From positions 1-60,298 of the forward strand of contig DVJF01000002.1 of assembly GCA_018716965.1 (NCBI GenBank): a DNA stretch of 60,298 nucleotides. The letters run 5' to 3'. The stretch's first letter is position 1. The number at the start of each line of letters is the position of its first letter. This document shows, piece by piece, positions 6,973 to 49,251 of the stretch. Under the pieces are notes generated by a model. That model was not told where the DNA came from. It did not search any database and saw nothing but the letters and a program-made list of their open reading frames with translations. The translations under genes and the position numbers were made by a program. This DNA is from Candidatus Caccenecus avistercoris. Lineage in GTDB: Bacteria; Bacillota_I; Bacilli_A; RF39; UBA660.

Positions 6973-9900
6973 TTAAGCCTTCTTTGTTACAATATTTGCT
7001 TTATGACCATTTAAATCAATTTCATTTTCTACTAATTCATCAAAAATAAGCTCTTTAGCTAAAGTTTCACTCTTAATATAGTCATTAAACATATTTACAG
7101 CTTCCTTAATATCTTCATCACCATTGTAAGTAATAATAATACGATCTACTACATTATAATCTTCTTGTTTTCTAATATTTTGAACTTTAGAAATAAACTC
7201 TCTAGCTAAACCTTCTAGAATTAATTCTTTTGTACGAACTGTATTTAAAATAACAAATAAATTATTTTCCATACCGACATTATAACCCTCTTTAGCATTA
7301 ATTCTAATATCTGTATAAGTATCATCTATTTCATATTCTGTATCATCTATTGTTACTTTAATCGTTTCTTTATTATTTAATTTAGTAATTTCACTATCAG
7401 TTAAATTAGCTAAAATATCACTAAATACTTTGATATTAGAACCAAATATCGGTCCTGCTACTTTAAAGTTTGGTTTTACATAAAAACTCATATATTTATT
7501 TAAATCACTAGTAAAAATAATTTTTTTAACATTTAATTCTTCTAAAATTAAATCTTTCAAATCGCCAATTAAACCTTCTAAATCAGCATTAAGTAAGCAT
7601 TCTGCTAATGGCTCTCTAACCTTTATTTTAGCTTCTTCTCTAATATTTCTACCAATACTAATAAGAGTTCTTACAGTATCCATTTTACTTTCTAAAGCTA
7701 GATTAATATACTCGGTATTATATTTAGGGAATACGGCTAAATGAACTGATTCTTCCCCAGTTAAATTGCGGTATAGTTCTTCACTTAAATATGGAATGAT
7801 TGGTGCAATCATTTTAGATAAACCTACTAATACATCATAAGTTGTACTATATACAGCTTTTTTAGAATTATCAAGCTCGCTACCCCAGAAACGATCTCTA
7901 TTTCTTCTAATATACCAGTTTGATAAATCTTCAGAGACAAAATAAGTTATAGCTTTTACTACTTTATTTAAATCGTATTCTTCGTATGATTCGGTTACAT
8001 ATTTAAGTAAATTATGATATTTTGATAATAACCATTTATCTATTTCTTCTAACTCTTCATATTCTACTTTGCATTCAGCAATATCAATGTTATCAGTATT
8101 CGCATACATGGCGAAGAAATTATAGGTATTTCTTAAAGGATTAAAGAATTTGGAATATACTTCTTTTAAACCTTCTTCATCAAATTTAATTGGAGTCCAT
8201 ACCGGAGAAGTAAACGGTAAGTACCAACGAATAGTATCAACACCAAAACGTTCCATTAAGCTGAATGGTTCAATCGCATTTCCTTTGGATTTATGCATTT
8301 TCTTACCATATTTATCAAGTAATAATTCATTTACTAATACATTTTTGTAAGGACTTACGCCTTTAACAAAGGTAGATATGACAAGTAATGAATAAAACCA
8401 ACCTCTGGTTTGATCAATTCCTTCACAGATGAAATCAGCTGGGAATTGGCTTTCAAAAATTTCCATATTTTCAAATGGATAATGATACTCTGCAAAAGGC
8501 ATTGATCCTGAATCAAACCAGCAGTCAATTACTTCTGATGTCCGATGCATTATTTTGCCACATTTAGGACACTTAATATGAACATCATCGACATAAGGGC
8601 GGTGTAAATCAATAGTCTCATCAATTTCTTCAATAGCTTTTTCGACTAGTTCTTGTTTTGATCCAATCATATCCATGTGTCCACATTCACATCTCCATAA
8701 AGGTAGTGGTGTTCCCCAATAACGACTTCTAGATATAGCCCAATCATTTAAATTTTCGAGCCAGTTACCAAAACGTTTTTCACCAACAAAGGCTGGATAC
8801 CAATTTACTTTCTTATTATTCTCTACAATTTTATCTTTTATTTTGGTAATCTCTAAATAATAACTTGGTTTAGAATAATAGATTAATGGAGTATTACAAC
8901 GCCAACAATGAGGATAGTTATGTTTCATACGGATTTTTTTGAATAATTTATTGTTTTCTTTCAAATATTTAATCACTTCTTTATCCGCATCAAAGACAAA
9001 CATACCCTTCCACAATCCTTCCGTGTAACAGCCATCATCACCAACAGGATTTAATACTGGTAAGTTATATTTTCTTCCTACTTCATAGTCATCAGCACCA
9101 AAAGCAGGAGCAATATGAACAATACCGGTACCATCTTCCATCGTAACGTAAGAATCACATGTTACATAAAAAGCTTTTTTGTTTACAGTTAGACTTGGTA
9201 TTAATTGCTCATAGCCAACATTTTCTAAAGTTTTACCTAAAAAGCGATCTAATACTGTGTATTCATCACCCAAAACGTTTGAAGCTAATTTTTCAGCGAC
9301 AATAAATTTATAGCCTTTTGATTCTACTAAAGAGTAGTATTCACTAGGATTTACACATAAAGCGACATTAGAAATTAGTGTCCATGGGGTTGTTGTCCAT
9401 ACTAAGAAATATTCATCCTTATCTACTCTTTTAAAAGGAACAATAACGGTATCAACATCAATTTCTTTATATCCTTGTTGCACTTCATGGCTAGCTAAAC
9501 CAGTTCCACATCTAGGACAATATGGAAGTATTTTTAAGCCCTCATAAAACAATCCTTCATCAAAGAATTTCTTTAAAATCCACCACTCTGTTTCAATGTA
9601 GTCATTATCATAAGTAATGTAGGGATGCTCTAAATCAATAAATTGACCCATTTCTTTGGTAAGTCTAGAAAAAGCATCTTCATTTTCCCAAACGATTTCC
9701 CGACATTTTTGGTTAAATTCTTTAATACCGTATTTTTCAATATCCCCTTTACCAGTGAAGCCTAATTTTTTTTCAACTTGAACTTCTACCGGTAAGCCAT
9801 GCGTATCCCAACCAATTTTTCTAAGTACGCGATAGCCTTGCATAGTCTTATATTTACAAAAAGTGTCTTTTAGAAATTTGGCTACCATATGATGAAGTCC

Positions 9901-10065
9901 AGGCATACCATTAGCAGTTGCTGGTCCATCATAAAAAACAAAATTATTATCTTTATCTCGAGAGTCAATACTGCTTTTTAATATATCAATTTTATCCCAG
10001 TAATCCCTTATATCCTTTTCTACTAAATTAACATTTCTTTTGTCTAAATCTTTAAAATCTTTCAT
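6973..10065 (-). CDS. ileS: isoleucine--tRNA ligase
   Basis: About 1030 aa, with a class I HIGH-type motif (PATANGMPGLHHM), a KMSKS-type motif (KKMHKSKGN) and Zn-ribbon cysteines (CPRCGT, CWRC, CPKCG). The start MKDFKDL at 10065 follows SD aggagg; the track start at 10125 lies inside the T-box terminator. Confidence 0.97.
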   Translation of the reverse strand: MKDFKDLDKRNVNLVEKDIRDYWDKIDILKSSIDSRDKDNNFVFYDGPATANGMPGLHHMVAKFLKDTFCKYKTMQGYRVLRKIGWDTHGLPVEVQVEKKLGFTGKGDIEKYGIKEFNQKCREIVWENEDAFSRLTKEMGQFIDLEHPYITYDNDYIETEWWILKKFFDEGLFYEGLKILPYCPRCGTGLASHEVQQGYKEIDVDTVIVPFKRVDKDEYFLVWTTTPWTLISNVALCVNPSEYYSLVESKGYKFIVAEKLASNVLGDEYTVLDRFLGKTLENVGYEQLIPSLTVNKKAFYVTCDSYVTMEDGTGIVHIAPAFGADDYEVGRKYNLPVLNPVGDDGCYTEGLWKGMFVFDADKEVIKYLKENNKLFKKIRMKHNYPHCWRCNTPLIYYSKPSYYLEITKIKDKIVENNKKVNWYPAFVGEKRFGNWLENLNDWAISRSRYWGTPLPLWRCECGHMDMIGSKQELVEKAIEEIDETIDLHRPYVDDVHIKCPKCGKIMHRTSEVIDCWFDSGSMPFAEYHYPFENMEIFESQFPADFICEGIDQTRGWFYSLLVISTFVKGVSPYKNVLVNELLLDKYGKKMHKSKGNAIEPFSLMERFGVDTIRWYLPFTSPVWTPIKFDEEGLKEVYSKFFNPLRNTYNFFAMYANTDNIDIAECKVEYEELEEIDKWLLSKYHNLLKYVTESYEEYDLNKVVKAITYFVSEDLSNWYIRRNRDRFWGSELDNSKKAVYSTTYDVLVGLSKMIAPIIPYLSEELYRNLTGEESVHLAVFPKYNTEYINLALESKMDTVRTLISIGRNIREEAKIKVREPLAECLLNADLEGLIGDLKDLILEELNVKKIIFTSDLNKYMSFYVKPNFKVAGPIFGSNIKVFSDILANLTDSEITKLNNKETIKVTIDDTEYEIDDTYTDIRINAKEGYNVGMENNLFVILNTVRTKELILEGLAREFISKVQNIRKQEDYNVVDRIIITYNGDEDIKEAVNMFNDYIKSETLAKELIFDELVENEIDLNGHKANIVTKKA

Positions 10066-10084
10066 AAGTCCTCCTTCTAAACAT

Positions 10085-10250
10085 AAAAAAGGTAGCACCA
10101 AAGGGCGTAAAATACGCGGTACCACCTTTATTTATTACTATTTCTTTTTAACGCTTTGTAGCGGAATATTCTATTTACTCAAATATCCAACTCCCAAGTG
10201 ATCTTTTAAAAGTTCGCTTCTTGATTTTCACCAACCATCAAGTCTCTTTG
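10085..10250 (-). promoter_or_regulatory. T-box leader (tRNA-Ile sensing) upstream of ileS
   Basis: On the minus strand the conserved T-box sequence AAAGGTGGTACCGCG is present (core at 10115..10126). It is followed by an alternative terminator helix and a U-run just before the ileS SD. A candidate specifier AUC lies in GGUGAAAAUCAAGAAG (plus-strand gat at 10223..10225). The boundaries are approximate. Confidence 0.75.
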
Positions 10251-10262
10251 TAAGCTACCCTT

Positions 10263-10532
10263 CTAAACGTCTTGTTCTGTGTTGTTCATATCATTTATAT
10301 GGTTCATAGTAAACATAGAAATAATCGTCTCTAAAATATTAGGGTCTTCTACTTCTTCTGTATACAACGTACCATCTTCTATTACTTCTTTAAAATATTT
10401 ATATTCTTGTTTAGGCATTTCTTCACTATCAATTTCTACACAATATAAATATCTTTCATGATTTAATTCTACGATATCTAGTACCATATATTCTACATTA
10501 TCTTCTAATGTAATAATATCATCTATATTCAT
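10263..10532 (-). CDS. DUF1292-like small acidic protein
   Basis: 89 aa. The sequence IITLEDNVEYMVLDIVELNHERYLYCVEID resembles the UPF0473/DUF1292 pattern. It overlaps the upstream gene by 4 nt. Confidence 0.65.
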   Translation of the reverse strand: MNIDDIITLEDNVEYMVLDIVELNHERYLYCVEIDSEEMPKQEYKYFKEVIEDGTLYTEEVEDPNILETIISMFTMNHINDMNNTEQDV

Positions 10533-13500
10533 GATCTTCCCCTTCCTTGCTCAACATTCTCTAGTAAATACATATCCCAATCATCAGGAATTTCGGCTGG
10601 AAGCTTAATAACATTCGATGGAAGATTTTCGATATCAAGTTCTTCAGGTCTAGGCTGTGATTCTACAACAGGTTCTTCCCTCATATGTCTAGCTTCTGTA
10701 TCAATTTGTTCCGTAGCTTTTTGTAAATCATTATTTACGCGATTAACAAACTCTTCAGCTGTTTCTTCTTTCATATGTTTAGGACTGCTTGATAAAGCTT
10801 TGTCTAAATTATTGTTAATGGTAGAAGCAATATCTGGAGTTTCTTCCATGTGTCTTGGTGTAGGTTCTTCTAGCGAATTGCTACTTAATTCTGAAGCCAT
10901 ATGACGAGCTCTTTTATCAATTCGTTCTTGAGCTTCTGCTAAATCGTTATCGCTTAGGGATGCTGGAAGTTCAGGATAGCTTTCTGTGTAATTGGCATCA
11001 TAGGCTATTTTTTCATTCATTAGTTCTTTATTTAAATTAATATTGTTACTATCAACATTATAAACAGCGTTCATTCCTACTTCTTTTAAAGTATCACCAG
11101 CTGTATTTACTTGTTCTTTAGCCCTTGTGCGATCATGAACTAAATTATGTCCAAATTCTTTTATTTTATCAATTAAATCTTTTTTAAATGGATCTGGCAA
11201 TCTATCAGGAACACCTTCTAATTTTTTAGATAGAAGAGTTTTCATTACAGCAAAACTACTTAAGCCAATAACTCCTATTTTACCTAAAGCTACAAGCATA
11301 GCTTCTAGAGTATAACCAGCCGCAATATTATAATTAATAGCTCCCACACCACCTACGAAACTAGCTAGGCTATGATTTATAGCACCGGTAATACCAGATA
11401 ATAATGGTGCTGCTTGAGCAAGACAACTATTTGCATAAATCATCGCTGGTACTAAAGATGGTAAAGTAAGAGATACAACTGCTAGCAATGAACCAATTAA
11501 TATTACTTGTTTCTTATGCTTTTGCCACCATTCTTTTTTCTTAGATTTTCGAATAGATTTAACTGCTTTTCTTTTACCTAATTTTTCACCAATTTTTTTG
11601 CCAACTTCTTCTACTTTATCTAAAGCTTTATTCATTAAGCCAAAATCATATTCTTCTTCCTCATCTGGTAATGCTTTTTCTTTGCTTTTTTTCTCTAATT
11701 CTTGCATTTCTTCTTCACTCAATGTTTGTAATTCAACATTTCTAGTTGGGTTAGAAACTGGTGGAATAATAACAGTAGGCGTTTCTTCCACTTTATTTTC
11801 ATCAGGAAGTGGTATTACTGTGTTGTCTTTATTATTTTCCTCAGTTTTAGTTGGAGCTTTATTTAATAATCTTTTTATTTGAATTTCATTTAAATTTTCT
11901 AATAATTTACGATATTCTGATTCTTTACCTGCATTTATTAAAGCTCCATTTACTTCTACAAGTGGTTCATTAGGATTTACACTTTTAAGCATTTTATATT
12001 GTTCACTTAATAAATTGTATTCTTCTAAGTCGCTAGCAAGTATTTCTTTACCTTCAGCTAAAATGGCATTTGGAGTATTTTTTGCTCTTTTAATCAATTC
12101 CGTTAATTCGGCTTCAATTTTCTTTTCGACTTCCCCATTTTGATTAGCAATTTTTTCTTCCTCTGATACTTTTGGAGCAAAATATTTTGTTTTACTGATT
12201 AATTCTTTATATTTAGCTAAGTCTTGATAAGAAACATTTCCACCTTCACTTATTTTATATAAATTATCTTTAGAAGATTCTAAAATACTTATAATAGCCA
12301 AAATATTTTCATATTCTTCTTTATCTTCTGGTAAAATAATGGCATCATTTACTTTGGTTAGAGGAATATTTGTAGTACCTTGATAATTTCTTACTTTATC
12401 TTCTAAACTAGTTAAGTAATCTTTTAACTCTTTAATTAATTTTTCATTTTCTTCCATTAATTTTACATCTGGATCATAACCATGGAAATAGGAAGTTGTT
12501 TTAATTAAATTAATAAAAGCTTCGCGATCAGGACCATTGACATAAGCGATATCCCAAATTGGAGTTAAAGCAAATTCTTGGTCATTAGCCCTATTTAAAT
12601 AATTTAAGACTTGAATTAATTTATTATATTCTACTTCTAATGTTGGTTTATTTTCTTTGGCCATTAATTCTTTTAGACGATCTAATTCTTTAGAAATGTC
12701 TTTAATTAGTTTATCATTTGGCTTTTCATTATTTACTTCTACTTTGTTTTTACTTGCCATATGTAATAAATCAATTTTTGGTAATAATTCTTTTACCGCA
12801 TCTTCTTGATGAGGATTTACACATAAAGTGTTATTAATGCATATAATAGGATCTTTTTCATTAACATTTTCAATAATTTTTAATAATATGTACAAATTAT
12901 CATAAGCTTCTTTATCTTTGGCTAAAATAGATGCACCATCTAGGCCAAAACCAGTTGCAGTTCCTCTTTTGGCATTTAGATAAGCATTTCTAAGAGTAGC
13001 CATTTCTTCTTCTACTACTTTTTTAACTTCACTATTTACATTATTCTTAATTTCGATCATCGCATTTTTAAGAATATTTTCGTTTTCTCTTAAGGTAGAT
13101 AAGGTATTTTGCAAATTTGTTATTTCTTGCCAAATTCTTGTATCCGTAATATCTTTTTTGCTTAATTCTTCTAATAACTTGCGATAACGGTCTTGATCTT
13201 GTCTATTAGTATTTAGACTATTTTGTAAAGCATTAAAGCGATCAATTTCATCTTTATTGGCTGTATATAAGGCTTCTTTCTTTTCTTCTTGAGCCATTTT
13301 TCGATCTTGGGTAATCTCTTCTTCTAAACTATCAAAGACAATATTTAAATAATCTTCATTACCAACGGTAGGTATATGATTAACAATTTGATAATAAAAT
13401 CTGGCGTAGGCTTTAAATTCGTCTACTCTTCCAATTTTTACTTTAATATCCGTTCCAGGAATAATTTCTAATTCGTTTTCATCTAAATTTCTTGCTTCTT

Positions 13501-20780: not shown

Positions 20781-21707
20781 TCAAGTTAAAAAATTCATAA
20801 TTAATTGGATTAACAATTCTTTTTCTTTAGGATTTGATTCGGCTATTAAAAGAGTTAGAGATGCTAAAGTGTTGTTATCAATAATAGCTTCATCATTTAC
20901 ATATAAAATGTCATAAAACTGTAGGAAGTAAATGAAAAGAGTTGCAGCAATTCTTTTATTACCATCAATGAATACATGATTTTTTACACAAGTATATAAG
21001 AAGTTAGCAGCCTTCTCCTCAATACTTTCATACACATCTTTGCTATCAAAGGTTTGATAAATATTATTAATGATACTTTCTAATCCTTTATCTCTTTCCA
21101 TGGCAAATATATCACTTTTTTCATGAAACTTTAATGTTTTAATAATATCTATACAATTTTTATAGGTTATCTTCTCATTACTAATACTCCCCTTTGGTTT
21201 GGTTAAGGTTTTATGATCGTAATCATCTAATAAATCAAGTGATTTTGTGTATCTTTGTAATACTTTGATGATATCACTAGCCCCTACCCCGTCTAATCCT
21301 TCTAAATTACGGCTGGCGATATCAATTAATTTAACTGTTTTTTCTAAGTATTCTAATCTTTTTTCATTGACAACATACCCTTTTATTAAATAATCTTTTA
21401 AAATTTTATTTGCCCATTTTCTGAATATTACACCATTTTTAGATTTAACCCGATAGCCAACACTGATAATAACATCTAAGTTATAAAAATTAACTAGTTT
21501 ATCAGAATTTGCAATTTGCATTTTTTGCAAATTGCTTTTTTCATCTAATTCTTCTTCAAAAACATTTTTAATATGACGTGAAATAACTCCAACATCTCTA
21601 TCAAATAGCTTTGCTATTTGCGCCTGTGTCAGCCAAACCGTTTCATCTTTCATGCTTACTTCTAGTTTTACATTTTGATTTTCAAATATTATAATTTCAT
21701 TTTTCAA
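20781..21707 (-). CDS. RhuM-like N-terminal domain fused to a Fic/Doc domain
   Basis: N-terminus IIIFENQNVKLEV..DETVWLTQAQIAKLF...VISVGYRVKS (RhuM pattern). The C-terminal HVFIDGNKRIAATL matches the Doc-type H-x-F-x-D-G-N-K-R motif. Confidence 0.85.
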   Translation of the reverse strand: MKNEIIIFENQNVKLEVSMKDETVWLTQAQIAKLFDRDVGVISRHIKNVFEEELDEKSNLQKMQIANSDKLVNFYNLDVIISVGYRVKSKNGVIFRKWANKILKDYLIKGYVVNEKRLEYLEKTVKLIDIASRNLEGLDGVGASDIIKVLQRYTKSLDLLDDYDHKTLTKPKGSISNEKITYKNCIDIIKTLKFHEKSDIFAMERDKGLESIINNIYQTFDSKDVYESIEEKAANFLYTCVKNHVFIDGNKRIAATLFIYFLQFYDILYVNDEAIIDNNTLASLTLLIAESNPKEKELLIQLIMNFLT

Positions 21708-21823
21708 TACAAATACCTCCTTTTAAACAAAATTATAAAAGTTACACTCCTACTATTATTTATTACTAGCACAATTCTTATCTCCTTTTTTATTTGCATC
21801 ATTTTACAATATTTTACATATTT

Positions 21824-22075
21824 TTAGGCAAAAAAATCCACTAGTTTCCTAGTAGATTTTTTCATTATTTCTGAATTAGAAAAGTGCATTTTTTGCACAT
21901 TACTATCTTTATCTAATTTTCCTTCTTTAAAAATATTATTAATGTGTTTGGTAATAACAGTTCTATTTTTATCAAATAGTTCTGCCATGTGCTCTTGAGT
22001 AAGCCAGACTATTTCATCTTTCATGTTTACTTCTAGTTTTACATTTTGATTTTCAAATATTATAATTTCAATTTT
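21824..22075 (-). pseudogene. truncated RhuM-like paralogue
   Basis: About 55 nt at 22021..22075 are nearly identical to 21651..21705 of the intact gene. The reading frame EIIIFENQNVKLEVNMKDEIVWLTQEHMAELF has no ATG at its 5' end and stops after about 85 codons. Confidence 0.75.
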
Positions 22076-22127
22076 CTCAAAGCCTTAATTTTAAATAAGC
22101 ATTAAAAATTTATAAAAAGGAATAAAA

Positions 22128-25812: not shown

Positions 25813-26694
25813 CTAAATTATTTTATTTATTTGAGTAATTAAAGCCGCAATAACTTTTTTATCTCCTATTTTGGTAATAGAAAAAGTTTTATAACCAATT
25901 CTATTGATACTAGCTCCACAGTGATATACAATACTATTATCTAATATAAAGTATCTATCATGAAAAGTATTGTCATATTTTATAACTAAATTATGATATT
26001 CTTTGTTATATTTTTCTATAGTAGTTTTTGATAGCAGACTAGGTGTTTTCGTTATAATTGTTACATTTATATTGGGTACTTCTTTTATAATATCAAGAAG
26101 TGTTTTATCAGCATAAGCATCTATGATTATTAATTCTTTTTTAGCACTTTTAAATATATCTAATATTTTAGAATAAGCATCATAAATCTGTCCATTAAAA
26201 TAAATTTCACTGTCTTTTCTTTTTTCTTCAAGTTTTTGAAATGATTCTTCTAAAACTTGTATTTTATTATGATCTTCTAATACTAAATTGTTAATATATT
26301 TTTGTTCTATTAAATTAACTCCAATGTATTTTCGCATAGCAACAAAGGCGTTCATAATAGCAATACTTACCTCTATGGCAACTTCACTATTTAAAATAGC
26401 TGATAGCATTGCAACGCCTTGCTCAGTAAAAACATATGGTGGACGTCTTAATCCTATTTTGTCATTATTGGACATCACATTTTGTGATCTCCAATTTAAA
26501 AATTCTTTTTGATTTAGTTGAAAGCAAAATTCTTCAGGGAATCTTTCTATATTTCTTTTTAATTTCTGAATTAGCACCCTTGTTTCTGTTTTATACAATT
26601 TTGCTAAATCTCTGTCTAACATGACTTGTTTTCCTCTTATTTCATAAATTAAATTTGTTAGTTTTTCTTCCTTTTTTACAACAATATTATTCAT
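25813..26694 (-). CDS. ORF6N (KilA-N-like) domain protein
   Basis: IYEIRGKQVMLDRDLAKLY...RRPPYVFTEQGVAMLSAILNSEVAIEVSIAIMNAF is the ORF6N signature. The start MNNIVVKK at 26694 follows SD aggggga. Confidence 0.85.
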   Translation of the reverse strand: MNNIVVKKEEKLTNLIYEIRGKQVMLDRDLAKLYKTETRVLIQKLKRNIERFPEEFCFQLNQKEFLNWRSQNVMSNNDKIGLRRPPYVFTEQGVAMLSAILNSEVAIEVSIAIMNAFVAMRKYIGVNLIEQKYINNLVLEDHNKIQVLEESFQKLEEKRKDSEIYFNGQIYDAYSKILDIFKSAKKELIIIDAYADKTLLDIIKEVPNINVTIITKTPSLLSKTTIEKYNKEYHNLVIKYDNTFHDRYFILDNSIVYHCGASINRIGYKTFSITKIGDKKVIAALITQINKII

Positions 26695-26790
26695 CTTTAT
26701 TCCCCCTATCATTTTTATAAGCAAATTATATTATGCATACATATGTGTGTCAGAAGAATATAAGAAAAATAGGTTTTTTACCTACTTAAT

Positions 26791-27055
26791 TTAATATAAA
26801 GTATCGATCATGAAATTAATTGATATAAATTTACGTATAGTAACAAAAGCATCCATAATCTTAATGCTCATTTCTTCCACAGCATTAGTTCTAAGAACTG
26901 TGTCAAGCATGGCAACACTCTGTTTAGTAAATATATACGGTAAAGTTCTAGACTTGCTATTTATTTTTGTGGTTTCAGACTGAAACCGCAAATTATTATA
27001 TTCTTCTTTAGCAATCTACCTTTTAAAGGCGATATTTTTGACCTCAAGTTTGATG
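26791..27055 (-). pseudogene. decayed ORF6N paralogue
   Basis: Same family (RTLPYIFTKQSVAMLDTVLRTNAVEEMSIKIMDAFV) but with an in-frame TAG upstream. An internal deletion joins it out of frame to the family's C-terminal FHDRYFIL segment. The string taatataaagtatcgatcatgaaa at 26791 region repeats the one near 25946. Confidence 0.7.
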
Positions 27056-27093
27056 TTTCATCTGTAGTTAAAATTTAAAAATAGGTTTTTCAC

Positions 27094-27801
27094 CTATTTC
27101 CTAAACTTTAAAATATAGCCTTTCATATATTCAGATACTCTATAACTATCTCTAATCTTACTTATAGCTTTATTCACTGTAAATTTATTCAAATGATTAT
27201 GTTCTAAATACTTAAGTCCAATATTTTCATATTTAATAAATATTTCACATATTAACCAAGCTTCAGCCATATTTACATAATATTCATCACTTTTAATATT
27301 ATCTAAATATTTTATAATTAAGTCTAAATAATTTTCTTCTACATAAAAACATAATAATATAATTAATCCTACTCTTATATGATAAGTTTCATTACTATTT
27401 ATTAGTTCATCTATTTTTGTTAAGAAATAATCTTTATTTTTATTTATGAGTTTTAAGCTGTTGCAAAAAGTATCACATAAAGCCCAATTATCAATTAAAT
27501 TAACAGCATCATCAAAATAAATCATTAATTCATCTATATCTTTAATATTTGCTATAACAAGTAATTTAATCATTACTTCTTCATAATAAGTAGATTTACA
27601 AATCTTTAAAAAAGATTTGTAATCACTCTTACTAATTTCTTTAGCTATACTTCTTAATTTAGGAAGTCTTATTCCTAACATTTCATATTTCGTAAAAGTT
27701 ATTTTTTCACTAAATTCTTTATAAGAAATTTCACTAATACTTTTTAAATAATTAATAAAATTATTATAACTATTATTATCCCATATAATATTTAAATCCA
27801 T
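27094..27801 (-). CDS. DNA alkylation repair (AlkD-like HEAT repeat) protein
   Basis: GIRLPKLRSIAKEI...NWALCDTFC...VNMAEAWL matches the DNA_alkylation family pattern. A terminator hairpin (aaataggt/acctattt) overlaps the stop codon. Confidence 0.65.
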   Translation of the reverse strand: MDLNIIWDNNSYNNFINYLKSISEISYKEFSEKITFTKYEMLGIRLPKLRSIAKEISKSDYKSFLKICKSTYYEEVMIKLLVIANIKDIDELMIYFDDAVNLIDNWALCDTFCNSLKLINKNKDYFLTKIDELINSNETYHIRVGLIILLCFYVEENYLDLIIKYLDNIKSDEYYVNMAEAWLICEIFIKYENIGLKYLEHNHLNKFTVNKAISKIRDSYRVSEYMKGYILKFRK

Positions 27802-27844
27802 ATATATCACCAAATATATGATAACAAGGATAAAATATTATGGC

Positions 27845-27897
27845 AAGAAAAAAACTGATAAACTATCAAATTTTAACTTTGACATATTTATCAGTTT
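27845..27897 (-). terminator. rho-independent terminator ending the 414-aa/75-aa operon
   Basis: 11-bp stem aaactgataaa/tttatcagttt followed by ttttttt on the minus strand. Confidence 0.7.
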
Positions 27898-27902
27898 CTA
27901 TA

Positions 27903-28130
27903 TTAACATTTATAAATATCTTCATATTTTCTTATTATATCTAAATTGTCTAATACTAGATAATTAATATGTAATTTTTGTAATTGATATTCAATATTAA
28001 CATTTTTCTTTAATCGTTTTAATATTAAGGTATCAATACCATAAGATACATATTTACCTTTTCTTATTATGATAACTAGATAATTCATATATACTTTTTT
28101 AGCAATATGATATCTATTATATATTCCCAC
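27903..28130 (-). CDS. hypothetical 75-aa protein co-transcribed with the VR-bearing gene
   Basis: GTG start preceded by a good SD (aaagagggga). I could not recognise a family with any confidence. Confidence 0.6.
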   Translation of the reverse strand: MGIYNRYHIAKKVYMNYLVIIIRKGKYVSYGIDTLILKRLKKNVNIEYQLQKLHINYLVLDNLDIIRKYEDIYKC

Positions 28131-28160
28131 ATTTATCCCCTCTTTACTTGTGGATAAGTG

Positions 28161-28378
28161 AGGCCGGCTCGGGAAGACTTCGCCTTCCTGCGAGCCATGT
28201 CACGCTTTCAAAATATACGGGTTATTCATAGTTCCATCTCCTCCCGAAATACCAACATTCGATGTTAGATATACCGAAGGACGGACCCCGTTCGAGTCGT
28301 CCCCACGGCCGTCGCTGTTCACATACCCGGAAGGGTACACAAGGAAGATGTTGCCGATGTCCCTCGAATACGGGGTTA
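28161..28378 (-). other. compositionally aberrant block; candidate DGR variable region plus IMH-like flank
   Basis: By hand count, 28141..28380 has 124 G+C of 240 nt (about 52%) against 23-28% in the adjacent 60-nt blocks. NNC codon runs are gac atc ggc aac atc ttc (28344..28361) and aac agc gac ggc cgt ggg gac gac tcg aac (28290..28319). Confidence 0.5.
28166..28196 (-). other. GC-rich imperfect hairpin 3 nt past the stop, no U-tract
   Basis: Minus strand: GGCTCG-CA-GGAAG-GCGAAGT-CTTCC-CGAGCC, an 11-bp stem with a GAA-centred loop. The sequence after it is ggcctcacttatcc, so it is not a canonical intrinsic terminator. Confidence 0.85.
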
Positions 28379-29444
28379 GTGTCCATTGATAATCATTATT
28401 AAAAATCCAATCGTTATTCTTGCAATCACTATAGCTTGATGATTCCCAATTATATAATTCTTTTGCTAAACATGCTTCTCTATTTGTTGTTGATCCTCCG
28501 CTAGTGGCGTATCCATAATCACTTGGATACATTAAAGCAATTTTGCCTTGCCATGTTGTTGGCCTTCCACTATAGACTGTGGTACCACGTTCATATCCAT
28601 ACCAATGACTTGCTAATCCATTACTAGCACTTGTATAGCTTGCTGTTCCTCCCAATTTCCATGTTACATTGGCTATCATATTTCTGGTTGTATTATTTTT
28701 TATTCCCGTTGCAGCATAAGATCCACTGTCATTTAAATAATCACCATTTAGTGTTGTTTGCAAACTTGCTGTACTCCAATTATTTGTGCCATCACTATCC
28801 CAAACAATGTCTCCTAGAGAGTTACTTCTAATTAATTTTACTAATTTTTCTCCACTTATTCCATGACTATTTTCATTAAATACACCTATGATTCGCCATA
28901 ACTCACAAGTACTACTACTTGGATTATTATAATCATCACAATTAAAATAAACATAATTATTCGGATTTGCTCCTATATATCTTAAATTATTATCTACAGT
29001 TCCATCATAAGCTAGCATTCCTTGATTTTCTTCATAGGCATCTTCTATAATGTCTGATGCTCCAGACTTTTCTTCAAAATACAAATAGCACTTAGTACCC
29101 TTTTTAGTCATCGGACTAACAGATAGTCCCTTTGTTGCACTATCATAACTTAGTGTTATAGACTCATCTTTTACATCATCTTCTGTTGTACAATAAGATT
29201 CACTAGTAAGTGCATAATTACCATCAGGTAGTGTATCTATCTCACTACCATCTAAATACATGGCTACGATATTTAAATCGGCTAAAGTATAATTTATTGT
29301 TCCATTAAGTAATGGCATACTTTGTGTCGTTCTATATTTAGCTCTAGTAAAATTTAATACTATGGCACTAATTATTCCTATTGCTATTAAAGCAATAATG
29401 ATATTTCTTTTTAAGTGGCTCCTTTTTAAAGTTTCAAATGTCAT
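28200..29444 (-). CDS. membrane-anchored secreted protein with a hypervariable-looking C-terminal domain
   Basis: 414 aa. The N-terminal signal anchor is KRNIIIALIAIGIISAIVLNF. The C-terminal scaffold motifs WTLTPYS ... GVRPSVYL bracket the GC-rich block. Confidence 0.9.
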   Translation of the reverse strand: MTFETLKRSHLKRNIIIALIAIGIISAIVLNFTRAKYRTTQSMPLLNGTINYTLADLNIVAMYLDGSEIDTLPDGNYALTSESYCTTEDDVKDESITLSYDSATKGLSVSPMTKKGTKCYLYFEEKSGASDIIEDAYEENQGMLAYDGTVDNNLRYIGANPNNYVYFNCDDYNNPSSSTCELWRIIGVFNENSHGISGEKLVKLIRSNSLGDIVWDSDGTNNWSTASLQTTLNGDYLNDSGSYAATGIKNNTTRNMIANVTWKLGGTASYTSASNGLASHWYGYERGTTVYSGRPTTWQGKIALMYPSDYGYATSGGSTTNREACLAKELYNWESSSYSDCKNNDWIFNNDYQWTLTPYSRDIGNIFLVYPSGYVNSDGRGDDSNGVRPSVYLTSNVGISGGDGTMNNPYILKA

Positions 29445-29751
29445 AGATAATTCCCTCTTTCTTAACTCGCATCATAACACATTTAAAATATGGTTTCATT
29501 ACGTTCGACAAAACATGTCAAAACTTCTTATTTTTCATGTTATGAAGTGCTACTTCATTTAAATAGTTTGAATTATAAGCTATGATATAGTTTCCTAGCT
29601 TATAGTTAAATTATAAAGTTAGGTAGACTAAAAGTCAAGAAAAATGTTCTATTTTATGACGTTTTATTTTTTGTCACGACACATAGTTCTCTATTTCGGT
29701 ATTTTATGTAAAAATAAAAACAAGTATGGAAAGAGAGTTTGTGAGGAAATA

Positions 29752-30210
29752 ATGAGACTTAAAAAAGTACGTGTTTATGCCGATTTAAATATAAAAGAAG
29801 TAGCTAATATGCTTGGTGTATCTAGAAGTAGTTATAACACTTGGGAAAGAGAATATGACATTATTCCTTTAAGGCAATTAGATAGGTTTTGTAGTATTTT
29901 TCATGTGTCATTAGATTTTGTTTTGGGGTTTAGTGATGAATGGAGTTATCCAAATAGTAGAGATACAATTGATCCAGAGTTACTCGCTAAGAGGATTAAA
30001 AGAATTAGAAGAGAAAATGATTTAACACAAGATGAGTTATCAAAAATACTTAATATAACACGTTCTTCTATAAGTAAATATGAACATGGTATTAATTTAG
30101 CTTTAACTTCTTATATAATGGGTTTTTGTAAATATTTTCATATATCTGCTGATTTTGTAACAGGAAGAATTGATGAAGAAATAATTTTAGATGCGAAGAT
30201 AAATAGTTAG
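29752..30210 (+). CDS. XRE-family regulator with two HTH domains
   Basis: Two HTH_3-like units (LNIKEVANMLGVSRSSYNTWE and LTQDELSKILNITRSSISKYE). The start MRLKKV at 29752 follows SD gaggaa. Confidence 0.85.
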   Translation: MRLKKVRVYADLNIKEVANMLGVSRSSYNTWEREYDIIPLRQLDRFCSIFHVSLDFVLGFSDEWSYPNSRDTIDPELLAKRIKRIRRENDLTQDELSKILNITRSSISKYEHGINLALTSYIMGFCKYFHISADFVTGRIDEEIILDAKINS

Positions 30211-30292: not shown

Positions 30293-31552
30293 ATGGATCA
30301 GGTTTATTTACATAGAAATTTTTTATGTATTGATTTAAAGAGTTTCTTTGCTTCTGCTGAATGTTTAGATAGAGGGCTTAATCCTTTTACTACTCCTTTA
30401 GTAGTTGCTAATCCAACACAGGGAAATGGTGCTATTACACTTGCTGTTACTCCCTATTTAAAAACTTTAGGAGTTAAATCAAGAGGAAGACTTTATGAAA
30501 TACCTAAAAGTATTAAATATATGATTGCTAAACCAAGAATGAGTCTTTATTTAGCGAAATCAAGAGAAGTAGTTGAAGTATATTTAAAGTATGTTTCGCT
30601 AGAAGATTTACATATTTATTCGATTGATGAATGCTTTTTAGATGTGACGAATTATTTAAAAATGTATGGAAAAAGTGATTATGAACTAGCTTTAGATATA
30701 TTAGAAGATGTACAAAAGTCTACAGGACTTACCGCTACCTGTGGAATTGGACCCAACATGCTTTTAGCCAAACTTTCTATGGATATTGAGGCTAAACACA
30801 ATAAAGATTTCATTGCTAAATGGACTTATGATGATATACCTACCAAATTATGGCCAATTCATCCGTTATCTAAAGTTTGGGGAATAGGTCCTAGAATGGA
30901 AGTTAATCTAAATCGTTTAGGCATTTATTCCGTATATGATTTAGCTCATTATGACCGTAATAAATTAAAACAGAAATTTGGAGTTATTGGTACAGAGCTT
31001 TGGAATCATGCAAATGGAATTGATTTGAGTTTAATTGGAGATATGAAAAAAACAAAAGATAAATCTTATTCTCATAGTCAAGTTTTATTTAAAGATTATA
31101 ATGGGAATAATATTAAAATTATTATTCGAGAAATGGTAGAAGTAGTTACAATGAGATTACATAAAAATCATGTTACTTCTTCTTTAATTGGTCTTGGTAT
31201 TGGGTATTCTAAAGATGTAGGAGGTAGTTTTTATCATCAAATAAAACTGGATCAACCAACTGATATAGAAAGTGTTATTTTAGCGAATGCTTTAATGATT
31301 TTTGATAAATATTATGAAGATTTACCTATTAGAAAAGTTACTGTTTCTTGCGGGAGGTTGCAAGAAAAAAGTGGCGTGCAATTAAATATTTTTGATAATA
31401 TTGAAAAAATTAAGGAGCAAGAACAAATAGATGAAGCTATATTAGAAATTAAAGATAAATATGGAAAAAATGCCCTACTTAAAGCTTCTAGTCTACTTAA
31501 TGATTCGACTATTCATGAGAGAAACAAAAAAATTGGAGGACATAGTGCATGA
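30293..31552 (+). CDS. Y-family (UmuC/DinB-like) translesion DNA polymerase
   Basis: CIDLKSFFASAE, the SIDECFLDVT catalytic motif, and the GIGP helix-hairpin-helix. A likely promoter (ttgatt ... tataat) lies upstream. Confidence 0.9.
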   Translation: MDQVYLHRNFLCIDLKSFFASAECLDRGLNPFTTPLVVANPTQGNGAITLAVTPYLKTLGVKSRGRLYEIPKSIKYMIAKPRMSLYLAKSREVVEVYLKYVSLEDLHIYSIDECFLDVTNYLKMYGKSDYELALDILEDVQKSTGLTATCGIGPNMLLAKLSMDIEAKHNKDFIAKWTYDDIPTKLWPIHPLSKVWGIGPRMEVNLNRLGIYSVYDLAHYDRNKLKQKFGVIGTELWNHANGIDLSLIGDMKKTKDKSYSHSQVLFKDYNGNNIKIIIREMVEVVTMRLHKNHVTSSLIGLGIGYSKDVGGSFYHQIKLDQPTDIESVILANALMIFDKYYEDLPIRKVTVSCGRLQEKSGVQLNIFDNIEKIKEQEQIDEAILEIKDKYGKNALLKASSLLNDSTIHERNKKIGGHSA

Positions 31553-31866
31553 TTGACCGAGGATTTGTAAAGTGGCAGCCTTTTAATAGTATTACACCAT
31601 CTAAAGATACGATAAAAGCTATAAAGGAGAAGGAAAAAGATGAAAGACCAGTGTTATTTCCAGAAGAAGTAAGTGTGCTTATTGATACTTTAATGGATGG
31701 ATATTATACCAAAGATAAAATACACTTAACTTATTATGAATCGTATCATATTAAAAATATTACTAGTACTATTAAAAAAATACATCCTAGCTCTAATACT
31801 ATTGAACTAGGATGCGGGAAAACACTTTATTTTGACCAAATTATTCATGTTTCAACACTCGAATAA
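31549..31866 (+). CDS. YolD-like protein
   Basis: MIDRGFVKWQPFNSI, with the size and position after a Y-family polymerase that are typical of YolD. Confidence 0.75.
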   Translation: MIDRGFVKWQPFNSITPSKDTIKAIKEKEKDERPVLFPEEVSVLIDTLMDGYYTKDKIHLTYYESYHIKNITSTIKKIHPSSNTIELGCGKTLYFDQIIHVSTLE

Positions 31867-35664: not shown

Positions 35665-35740
35665 TGGTGATCTGTACGGGATTTGAACCCGTGAATGTTG
35701 CCTTGAGAGGGCAATGTGTTAACCGCTTCACCAACAGACC
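35665..35740 (-). tRNA. tRNA-Glu (anticodon CUC)
   Basis: GGTCTGTTGGTGAAGCGGTTAACACATTGCCCTCTCAAGGCAACATTCACGGGTTCAAATCCCGTACAGATCACCA folds as a cloverleaf. The anticodon loop is CTCTCAA, the T-loop is GTTCAAATC, and the CCA is encoded. Confidence 0.9.
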
Positions 35741-49175: not shown

Positions 49176-49251
49176 TGGCTGCCCTAGTAGGATTCGAACC
49201 TACGAAATTACGGGGTCAGAGCCCGCTGCCTTACCGCTTGGCCATAGGGCA
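49176..49251 (-). tRNA. tRNA-Gln (anticodon CUG)
   Basis: TGCCCTATGGCCAAGCGGTAAGGCAGCGGGCTCTGACCCCGTAATTTCGTAGGTTCGAATCCTACTAGGGCAGCCA. Anticodon loop CTCTGAC, T-loop GTTCGAATC. A hairpin with a U-run follows. Confidence 0.9.

Follow-up and report, generated by a model that had tools for sequence, protein, structure and literature searches.

A probable orphaned target of a diversity-generating retroelement in an uncultured gut Bacilli genome, beside a deletion with an IS21-end remnant

The GC-rich block near the 3′ end of a surface-protein gene is very probably a variable region (VR) written by a diversity-generating retroelement (DGR), the cassette of which has been deleted at this locus, leaving the target as an orphaned relic. 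The window (the whole stretch of DNA analyzed, 60,298 nt) contains a DGR target and not a complete DGR, with RT, template repeat (TR) and accessory gene all absent. An earlier note on this DNA had proposed a remote or orphan target: the VR was confirmed, the RT and TR are not in the window, and the cassette was found in sister strains. Comparing these strains settled the choice among a remote target, an orphan and something new.

Composition of the GC-rich block

Our recount gave 124 G or C among the 240 nt of positions 28141-28380 (0.517), equal to the figure behind the roughly 52% GC reported earlier, with AT-rich 60-nt blocks on either side (GC 0.25 at 28090-28149 and 0.28 at 28390-28449) and 28.2% GC over the whole window. 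The most GC-rich 120-nt segment of all 60 kb starts at 28271 (0.567, versus a mean of 0.282 and standard deviation of 0.060). Along the target gene (28200..29444, minus strand), third-position GC is 0.17 in codons 1-355, 0.77 in codons 356-390 and 0.29 in codons 391-414, and this coding sequence contains, as quoted, both of the NNC runs described for it together with the motifs WTLTPYS and GVRPSVYL. The earlier claim that the anomaly continues past the stop codon holds in that a GC-rich hairpin is located there, but not as one continuous block: the anomaly splits into two features, the VR (28278-28376) and the hairpin (28166-28196), separated by about 80 nt of DNA of ordinary composition (0.37 GC).

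The VR comprises 99 nt (28278..28376, minus strand; codons 357-389 of 414; GC 0.61, A 0.18) and sits at the 3′ end of the target ORF. NNC runs and a GC content of 61% would be expected in a genome of 28% GC because the scaffold codons of a TR would have to avoid A (TCG, GTC, GTG, GGG, GCG or CGT), and the AAC/AAT codons of the TR would become NNC/NNT after mutagenesis. No repeat copy of the block, and hence no TR, was present within the 60-kb window; blastn against phage records gave no match, and an Rfam search of the whole window returned a T-box and two tRNAs only, with nothing at the block. When a GC spike and NNC runs coincide where a gene ends, they form a DGR footprint that can be read from the 3′ end with no RT in view.

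Variation and adenine specificity

Homologues of the target protein are about 85-93% identical outside residues 359-385, where variation is concentrated: mean column entropy is 1.57 bits in this segment, compared with 0.27 upstream and 0.10 downstream. Fifteen columns of the segment exceed 2 bits and coincide exactly with the 15 AAC/AAT codons in the sister-strain TR, in agreement with the variation at NNC codons that had been proposed as a check among relatives. At these hypervariable columns, 575 of 577 residues belong to the set of 15 amino acids that NNC codons encode; K, E, Q, M and W make up 13.8% of the target family overall.

The template-like near-copy with A-site mismatches that the earlier note had suggested looking for was found in sister strains, where the window VR aligns to the TRs of four loci (L006, L086, L090 and L091). 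Of the 36 A sites in the L091 TR, 20 are changed in the window VR, compared with 7 of the 63 non-A sites (Fisher p = 3.5e-6); relative to the best TR allele, the VR differs at 19 A sites and 6 non-A sites and additionally by one codon. These A-site differences, together with homologue variation at the AAC/AAT codons of the TR, bear out the identification of the block as a DGR variable region. The actual template of the window VR was not recovered, since every sampled TR has 6-7 non-A differences from it and the VR has one extra codon. A template agreeing with this VR outside the A sites would read TCG AGG .. ATC .. ATC, with a five-codon AAC block and with GGG where the known TRs have GCG. Five of the non-A differences are common to the VRs of L091 and L092, and these shared differences do not represent decay after the deletion because L091 has an intact TR; the count is also within the range of published DGR VRs (up to 11 non-A differences). 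In sister strains, comparison of each TR with its own VR gave A-site/non-A differences of 18/0 (L006), 14/0 (L086) and 19/1 (L090). L091 and L092, the latter a different paralogous locus, have a 5′ VR half identical to that of the window, showing that VR haplotypes are exchanged among loci and strains.

Homology between TR and VR stops at the GC-rich 3′ end of the VR, GGGGTCCGTCCT (28278..28289, minus strand), beyond which the VR reads on as TCGGTATATC and the TR as AGAGCTTTC; the TR follows the pattern ACCCCG..GGGTATGTG..CGTCCT. The GGGGTCCGTCCT segment is identical in every active and remote VR of the subfamily, and from this sequence pattern it resembles a putative IMH-like homing boundary. 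A scan of GTDB genomes for the 3′ part of the VR, as an exact pattern with N at A sites, gave no matches.

A composition jump of this kind could, on its own, also reflect foreign DNA of higher GC content or ordinary selection on the protein, with no retroelement involved. This explanation is practically untenable: the GC-rich segment is common to all homologues from AT-rich genomes, it has no match among phage records, and a non-coding A-rich copy of it adjoins an RT and Avd. The adenine-specific differences between VR and TR, along with the restriction of hypervariable columns to the NNC set, refute both versions.

Cassettes in sister strains

Three sister loci (L006, L086/L087 and L090) carry the target, a 94-aa ORF, a TR, a weakly MutS_I-like ORF, Avd and a DGR-type RT, with all cassette parts located between the target gene and a DNA-alkylation-repair gene, which the RT directly precedes. 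In L091 the same order continues past the TR into the MutS_I-like ORF, in the first part of which the contig ends. All four share flanks consisting of YolD, Y-family polymerase and HTH genes on one side and DNA_alkylation, ORF6N, FIST and Aldedh genes on the other, and in each the TR begins 10-20 nt past the 94-aa ORF. The sister-strain Avd matches NCBIfam DivGenRetAVD (E = 2.7e-13) and Pfam bAvd, and the RT matches RVT_1, with the motifs IGNLTSQ and YMDD. An RT and Avd next to the template copy, another of the checks proposed earlier, were thus seen in L006, L086/L087 and L090. A separate search for RT homologues placed the representative of the species' RT cluster on a 2.4-kb contig, without useful context.

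The MutS_I match of the 119-aa cassette ORF falls below the Pfam threshold (E = 0.0083; 16.8 versus 20.6 bits). The 94-aa ORF matches no Pfam or NCBIfam family, and it was rejected as a second MutS-like protein, with no significant BLASTP match to the 119-aa ORF. It is full length in the cassette-bearing loci and also in L004, which has no cassette.

Deletion of the cassette and the IS21 remnant

Searches of the 60-kb window for an RT (tblastn queries: the sister-strain RT plus 11 diverse DGR RTs) and for the sister-strain Avd gave no match; with the TR also missing, the earlier statement that none of the three occurs in these 60 kb stands. Compared with the sister strains, the window lacks about 2.06 kb that begins at codon 73 of the 94-aa ORF and includes the stop codon of the RT at its other end; lost are the end of that ORF, the TR, the MutS-like (MSL) ORF, Avd and RT. 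Window positions 29600..27910 correspond to L006 8111..9792 and positions 27826..26900 to L006 11854..12783, and the deletion boundaries agree against L006, L086, L087 and L090. What is left of the 94-aa ORF is a truncated copy of 75 aa (27903..28130, minus strand), cut after codon 72 and matching residues 1-72 of the L006 protein at 89% identity by tblastn.

Abutting the truncation point is a 66-nt terminal fragment of an IS21-family element (27849..27914, minus strand), 97-98% identical to the rve-side end of a complete element in L089; the latter has rve and IstB genes, is about 2.34 kb long, is bordered by AATAGT on both sides and has ends beginning TAAATGT. The window contains no transposase gene, and its IS21 part, 66 nt of one terminus, is a fragment and not a member element. 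Within this fragment lies the U-tract hairpin (27848-27897), which is part of the IS21-family remnant, contrary to its earlier interpretation as the real terminator of the operon. Between the fragment and the resumed synteny, the junction alignment leaves a 21-nt segment (27828..27848, minus strand), and because these 21 nt of unexplained origin follow the IS fragment, the junction is not a simple one-step deletion. Synteny with L006, L086 and L090 resumes at position 27826, upstream of the DNA alkylation repair gene (27094..27813, minus strand; Pfam PF08713) that forms the right-hand flank. The junction is not a misassembly, since three assemblies (L001-L003) show it in identical form. A deletion of about 2 kb, marked by an IS21-end remnant, accounts for the missing parts, and the mechanistic novelty that had been offered as one possibility is not supported.

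The window could instead represent the ancestral state, with the cassette inserted in other strains and the GC-rich block acquired by recombination with a diversified allele. Such exchange has some precedent in the data, as VR haplotypes travel (the 5′ half shared with L091 and L092) and L089 joins the flanks of two paralogous loci. We nevertheless regard this scenario as very unlikely: the window copy of the 94-aa ORF is cut at codon 72, precisely where the IS21 terminus starts, the ORF is full length both beside cassettes and in cassette-less L004, and the two ends of the deletion coincide in comparisons with four sister loci.

Under loss of the cassette from a once complete DGR, established DGR biology would predict that an A-rich TR was transcribed and then copied by the DGR RT with Avd, that random bases entered opposite template adenines, and that the resulting cDNA replaced the VR up to the GC-rich boundary GGGGTCCGTCCT. 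Loss of the cassette would most likely have involved insertion of an IS21 element followed by deletion, after which the VR would be a frozen relic at the window locus unless an unlinked DGR still acts on it. Three routes of loss were observed, namely the IS21-associated deletion of the window and fusions of the TR to the 3′ ends of two different paralogues (L008 and L012), and they provide concrete examples of how cellular DGR cassettes are lost with diversified targets left behind. They leave the understanding of the DGR mechanism unchanged, and loss of the core with retention of targets is already documented.

Possible action of a second cassette

The target-side sequences of the window are intact, and the VR might therefore still be an active remote target, with positions 28278-28376 rewritten in trans by a second DGR cassette elsewhere in the genome. 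We consider this possible yet rather doubtful. The GC-rich boundary and the whole 3′ flank of the window VR are identical to those of VRs beside intact cassettes, and sister strains have remote targets at least 57 kb from the cassette with pure A-site differences; that DGRs can act in trans is established (PMC5758913). One such remote VR, L007, has 18 A-site and no non-A differences from an L086-type TR; its match is to a TR allele different from that of its own contig, which is also the contig of L006. The mismatch hints at other TR sources or recombination, and could mean that a second TR source exists; several related gut Bacilli MAGs also have two to three RT loci.

Against a second cassette, the 60-kb window has no RT, Avd or TR, and the only cassette seen in each sister strain examined occupies the position deleted in the window. 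The closest GTDB MAG, BRZ_NT__bin122, has many target paralogues and no RT among the best 80 RT loci, and both of its TRs are truncated fusions. The same target protein sequence was present on five contigs from at least three assemblies, which weighs only weakly against continued rewriting since the cassette-linked allele P0018 also repeats, on seven contigs. Samples with the window contig include ERZ1478588 (scaffold_549), ERZ1478589 and ERZ27234804. Repetition of an identical protein was accordingly discarded as a sign of a frozen VR, as P0018 recurs with equal frequency and some raw data may be common to the assemblies.

The hairpin and the 94-aa ORF

The GC-rich hairpin noted earlier, 3 nt past the stop, with a GAA-centered loop and no U-tract, is at 28166-28196 as described. 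The element (GGCTCG-CA-GGAAGGC-GAA-GTCTTCC-CGAGCC; minus strand, identified by folding) starts 3 nt past the TGA stop and 81 nt beyond the point where the VR ends and has no T-run, with predicted folding energies of -19.6 kcal/mol as RNA and -10.2 kcal/mol as DNA (z = -1.98; 5 of 200 shuffles as good). It is kept in the targets that precede the 94-aa ORF (L006, L008, L012, L086, L090 and L091), where changes are limited to the loop and one G-C to G-T pair, whereas half of it is deleted in L004. The GDPD-linked paralogues and most other paralogues have AT-rich terminators in its place.

The hairpin, likened earlier to the cruciform needed for DGR homing, is at most a putative one. Published DGR hairpins have a 7-10 bp stem and a 4-nt GRNA loop and lie 4-34 bp from the VR (PMC3240598), and such a repeat is present in only 34% of DGRs. 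The hairpin of the Bordetella phage BPP-1 DGR, with an 8-bp stem and GAAA loop, directly follows the IMH, whereas that of the window is 81 nt away, has a bulged stem of 6+5-7 bp and a loop of 3-7 nt (GAA or GCGAAGT), and is absent or broken in paralogues that still show A-specific diversification.

The 94-aa ORF and the hairpin occur between the target stop and the TR at all cassette-linked targets, and also in L004, where the hairpin is broken. It is conceivable, and in our judgment improbable, that together they form a putative undescribed target-linked DGR module and that recurrent cassette loss serves as a switch that freezes VRs in a population. Such a module could define the 5′ end or the processing of the TR transcript, or mark a preferred homing site, and recurrent loss could act at the population level by freezing a useful VR allele.

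Relation to known systems

One of the closest parallels is Treponema denticola, in which strains without the core DGR keep VR-bearing targets (Front Microbiol 2016, PMC4891356). As in that species, the DGR is cellular and not of phage origin, its targets are several scattered paralogues that encode surface proteins, RT and TR are gone from some strains that yet retain targets, and the VRs differ from the TR mostly at adenines. The two systems differ in phylum, the window host being an uncultured gut Bacilli; in accessory genes, which are Avd and a small weakly MutS_I-like ORF here and HRDC in T. denticola; and in the target domain, related here to DUF6273 instead of FGE-sulfatase. Furthermore, the loss event itself is visible in the window as a deletion with an IS21-end remnant.

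The sister cassette also resembles MSL DGRs, which constitute architecture D of Wu et al. 2018 and include the Legionella DGR (PMC5758913), in having Avd and a 119-aa ORF with a weak MutS_I match, a single orientation and the TR upstream of the RT; 3-nt indels by AAC repeats and several non-A substitutions also occur, in line with descriptions of cellular DGRs of this type. Unlike those systems, its MutS_I match falls under the Pfam threshold and it has an extra conserved 94-aa ORF between target and TR, and the window itself holds none of those parts. Similarity to the BPP-1 DGR (mtd, avd, TR, brt) lies in the VR at the 3′ end of a receptor-binding-type gene, the diversified AAC codons, the GC-rich boundary where mutagenesis ends and a GC-rich inverted repeat downstream of the VR. 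BPP-1, however, is a phage element with one adjacent target, and the system considered here is chromosomal with several paralogues.

The target family and its hosts

The 414-aa target protein has a transmembrane helix at its N-terminus, followed by a conserved extracellular region and, at the C-terminus, a variable domain. No Pfam or NCBIfam family reached threshold, and a profile search against PDB sequences gave no match. In distant relatives, the C-terminal region passes the Pfam DUF6273 threshold over the W-T-[LM]-[ST]-P ... G-V-R-P segment that holds the VR, with an additional weak match to Lcl_C. DUF6273 has been modeled as C-type-lectin-like with the VR on its surface (PMC10743442), and its occurrence in distant relatives gives indirect support for a lectin fold of the variable domain of the target. 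This relationship recalls the DUF6273 targets of gut phages ("tentaclins", Faecalibacterium prophage; PMC10743442). In contrast to those phage tail proteins, the window protein is under every Pfam threshold, and is cellular and membrane-anchored. Its putative lectin-like fold was not confirmed by structure prediction: two AlphaFold2 runs, using 51 close homologues and 63 sequences including paralogues about 35% identical, returned low pLDDT values (45 and 42), and the C-terminal domain scored below 50.

At least 7991 homologues of the target were found in gut metagenomes, and its host lineage is the "Mycoplasma sp. CAG:776" group of uncultured gut Bacilli. The known DGR targets thereby gain a large unannotated family of surface proteins anchored in the membrane, with more than 7,900 gut-metagenome relatives, many paralogues per genome, a subfamily that lacks a Pfam model, and hosts among uncultured small-genome gut Bacilli. 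Divergent from the target in the window is a gene for an XRE-type regulator with two HTH domains (29644..30210, plus strand; Pfam HTH_3 twice), and such a regulator gene is also found upstream of the target paralogues at L004, L006, L007, L086 and L089-L091.

A variable region separated from its retroelement

The window holds a target of a diversity-generating retroelement (DGR) and not a DGR. The features that define a target were found, namely a variable region (VR) at the 3' end of a gene, a GC-rich boundary, differences from a template repeat (TR) biased towards adenine, and hypervariability restricted to AAC codons; the last two support the main reading of an earlier note, made from this DNA alone, that the block is a DGR variable region. 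The parts that define the element itself (reverse transcriptase, TR and accessory gene) were each tested for and were absent: our searches of the 60 kb detected no RT or Avd and no second copy of the GC-rich block, in agreement with that note. The closest precedent is provided by T. denticola strains that lack the core DGR but still carry VR-bearing targets (PMC4891356). The host comes from a lineage of uncultured gut Bacilli, relatives of "Mycoplasma sp. CAG:776", whose genomes each carry many paralogues of the target.

The target gene (CDS 28200..29444, reverse strand) encodes a membrane-anchored surface protein of 414 aa, with the VR at 28278-28376 (codons 357-389). A recount reproduced the composition described in the earlier note (124 of 240 nt G or C over 28141-28380, against 0.25 and 0.28 in the adjoining 60-nt blocks and 28.2% in the entire window), and its NNC runs, the motifs WTLTPYS and GVRPSVYL and a GC-rich hairpin 3 nt past the stop codon (28166-28196) were all located as described. 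The GC maximum of the 60 kb lies in the 120 nt from 28271 (0.567; mean 0.282, sd 0.060), and third-position GC in the target rises from 0.17 in codons 1-355 to 0.77 in codons 356-390, falling to 0.29 thereafter. The anomaly falls into two parts: some 80 nt of unremarkable composition lie between the coding block and the hairpin. A scan of the window placed no Rfam family at the block.

Homologues of the target are numerous in gut metagenomes (at least 7991), and the 40 closest (overall identity 83-93%) showed that the GC-rich block is hypervariable in exactly the manner of a DGR. Variation was concentrated at residues 359-385, where mean column entropy was 1.57 bits as compared with 0.27 upstream and 0.10 downstream. 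Fifteen columns in this segment exceeded 2 bits, and 575 of their 577 residues belonged to the set of 15 amino acids reachable from AAC or AAT when only the first two bases change; elsewhere in the family, 13.8% of residues are K, E, Q, M or W. These 15 columns are the 15 AAC/AAT codons of the TR found in sister strains.

The cassette of sister strains and its template

Both flanks of the window are common to a sister-strain locus, L006 (YolD, Y-family polymerase and divergent HTH gene on one side; DNA_alkylation, ORF6N, FIST and Aldedh on the other), in which the interval between the target and the DNA_alkylation gene holds a 94-aa ORF, a 96-nt A-rich repeat (the TR), a 119-aa ORF, a bAvd gene and an RVT_1 gene. 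This arrangement recurs in L086/L087 and L090, and the order is also kept in L091, whose target is the closest relative of the window protein (93% identity), up to the contig end inside the 119-aa ORF. The sister-strain Avd matched NCBIfam DivGenRetAVD (E = 2.7e-13), and the RT carries the motifs IGNLTSQ and YMDD; [ILV]GxxxSQ is the hallmark of DGR RTs. The 119-aa ORF matched MutS_I weakly (E = 0.0083), which is in keeping with the "MSL" accessory class described by Wu et al., and the cassette resembles their MSL-containing architecture. Differences between the TR and the adjacent VR fell at 18 A sites and no other site in L006, 14 and none in L086, and 19 and one in L090.

The TRs have 45-48% GC and 33-36% A, and their constant codons avoid A (TCG, TCC, GTC, GTG, GGG, GCG, CGT, CCT), presumably because any adenine in the TR would be mutagenised. 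VRs have 54-61% GC and 15-20% A, and mutagenesis would swap about half of the TR adenines. A-avoiding constant codons and the loss of adenines would together produce a GC-rich VR with rare G/C-ending codons, and may thus account for the composition jump.

Compared with the equal-length TR of L091, the window VR is changed at 20 of 36 A sites and at 7 of 63 non-A sites (odds ratio 10, p = 3.5e-6); against the L086/L090 TR allele it has 19 A-site and 6 non-A differences and one additional codon in the AAC run. Five non-A differences in its 5' half are identical bases in the VRs of L091, which adjoins an intact TR, and of L092, a separate paralogous locus from another strain. Decay after loss of the cassette is thereby ruled out as their source, and they point to an inherited VR haplotype or an unsampled TR allele. 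The TR is itself polymorphic between strains, with two sets of non-A alleles (L006 9868-9964 and L091 2217-2316). The AAC-type block after GTG has four or five codons in TRs and in VRs, whatever the adjacent partner, a pattern compatible with slippage of the RT on AAC repeats or with exchange between strains. In cellular DGRs, up to 11 non-A substitutions per target and 3-nt indels beside AAC repeats have been reported (PMC5758913).

The 94-aa ORF has no known family and follows the cassette-side target copies and that of L004, a cassette-less locus. It starts with GTG behind a well-formed ribosome-binding site and is 89-91% identical between strains. It lies at 9572-9856 in L006, and in the window (27903-28130, reverse strand) it is shortened to 75 aa.

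Loss of the cassette

Alignment by blastn joined window 29600..27910 to L006 8111..9792, and window 27826..26900 to L006 11854..12783; the boundaries against L086, L087 and L090 were the same. The window therefore lacks about 2.06 kb, from the 22 C-terminal codons of the 94-aa ORF through the TR, the 119-aa ORF and Avd to the RT, and has about 85 nt of filler instead. The first 66 nt of this filler (27849-27914) start exactly at the end of the 94-aa ORF homology and are 97-98% identical to one end of an intact IS21-family element in L089, a locus of another strain. This complete element of ~2.34 kb (~7776-10125) carries rve and IstB genes, interrupts a GDPD gene and is bordered by AATAGT at each end. 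Only this solo end occurs in the window, with no full copy of the element, and no source was found for the remaining 21 nt (27828-27848). The hairpin with a U-tract that had been taken for the operon's terminator is present (27848-27897), but belongs to the IS terminus at the junction. The cassette was probably lost when a deletion extended from within an IS21-family element, inserted in the 94-aa ORF, to just beyond the RT gene; insertion before deletion is the proposed order. The junction is identical across three assemblies, which rules out misassembly, and the earlier suggestion of something mechanistically new is unsupported.

Cassette loss is recurrent in the lineage. In BRZ_NT__bin122, the closest GTDB MAG, an unmutated TR runs in register into the 3' flank that belongs to the VR of the GDPD-linked paralogue (L012 2945-3060), and at a second locus a TR cut after GTGAACAAC is fused to the 3' end of a paralogue that is more distant (L008 1800-1965). 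Each fusion removes the MutS_I-like ORF, Avd and RT, and none of the 80 best RT loci came from this MAG. L089 has a left flank of the window type (YolD, polymerase, HTH, target), and its right flank is that of the GDPD-linked paralogue; either paralogous target genes have recombined, with a deletion of ~57 kb, or the locus is an assembly chimera.

We consider the window VR to be probably a frozen relic. Continued diversification in trans is a less likely alternative, consistent with several observations. The 3' boundary of the VR and its entire downstream coding flank are identical to those beside intact cassettes, so that, judging from sequence, the site should still be usable for DGR homing. 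Remote targets with purely A-site differences also exist: L007, a paralogous target followed by a GDPD gene on the same contig as L006 and ~57 kb from its cassette, has a VR (11071-11167) that differs from the L086-type TR allele at 18 A sites and no others. Relative to the TR on its own 112-kb contig it is mismatched at 6 non-A sites, and would therefore have been last written from a different TR or imported by recombination. Related MAGs can, moreover, carry 2-3 RT loci. The frozen relic nevertheless remains our preferred reading.

Fold of the target and the downstream hairpin

The target protein matched no Pfam or NCBIfam family and no PDB sequence, and two AlphaFold2 runs gave a low-confidence C-terminal domain (pLDDT 45 and 42). 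Distant paralogues, which share ~35% identity with the window protein and align to it over the full length, pass Pfam DUF6273 across the VR-homologous segment, and one has a weak Lcl_C match. Since models of the DUF6273 domain in phage DGR targets are C-type-lectin-like (PMC10743442), a lectin-like fold of the C-terminal domain is likely by analogy.

The GC-rich hairpin folds at -19.6 kcal/mol as RNA and -10.2 kcal/mol as DNA (z = -1.98). It is kept in targets followed by the 94-aa ORF, with changes only in the loop and in one G-C to G-T pair; in L004 it is half deleted, and in the GDPD-linked paralogues and the majority of the others AT-rich terminators of the ordinary kind take its place. 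Published DGR hairpins have GC stems of 7-10 bp and 4-nt GRNA loops 4-34 bp from the VR (PMC3240598), whereas that of the window is bulged, differs in its loop and lies 81 nt from the VR. A hairpin of the published kind accompanies only 34% of DGRs. Possible roles for the window hairpin are those of a DGR cruciform, of an RNA element situated between target and 94-aa ORF/TR transcript, or of both.

Neighbouring genes and other features

An XRE regulator with two HTH domains (29644-30210, forward strand) lies divergently upstream of the target, and is possibly dedicated to this surface-protein family; at other locations, too, paralogous targets have a similar gene upstream. Directly beside the regulator are genes for a Y-family (ImpB/UmuC-like) DNA polymerase and a YolD-like protein (30293-31866, forward strand), an adjacency that is probably coincidental, since the neighbours differ at other paralogous target loci. 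The 303-aa ORF6N/Rha-like gene is followed by a fragment-like 66-aa ORF of the same domain (25813-26991, reverse strand); in sister strains the gene is otherwise split or shortened (133+137 aa, or 190 aa). Rfam identified a T-box leader (10098-10288) and two tRNA genes (35668-35740 and 49179-49251), all on the reverse strand, and nothing else in the window. Two imperfect direct repeats of ~155 nt (21502-22076), 81% identical and 371 nt apart, lie just upstream of a RhuM/Fic-domain gene and extend into its 5' end.
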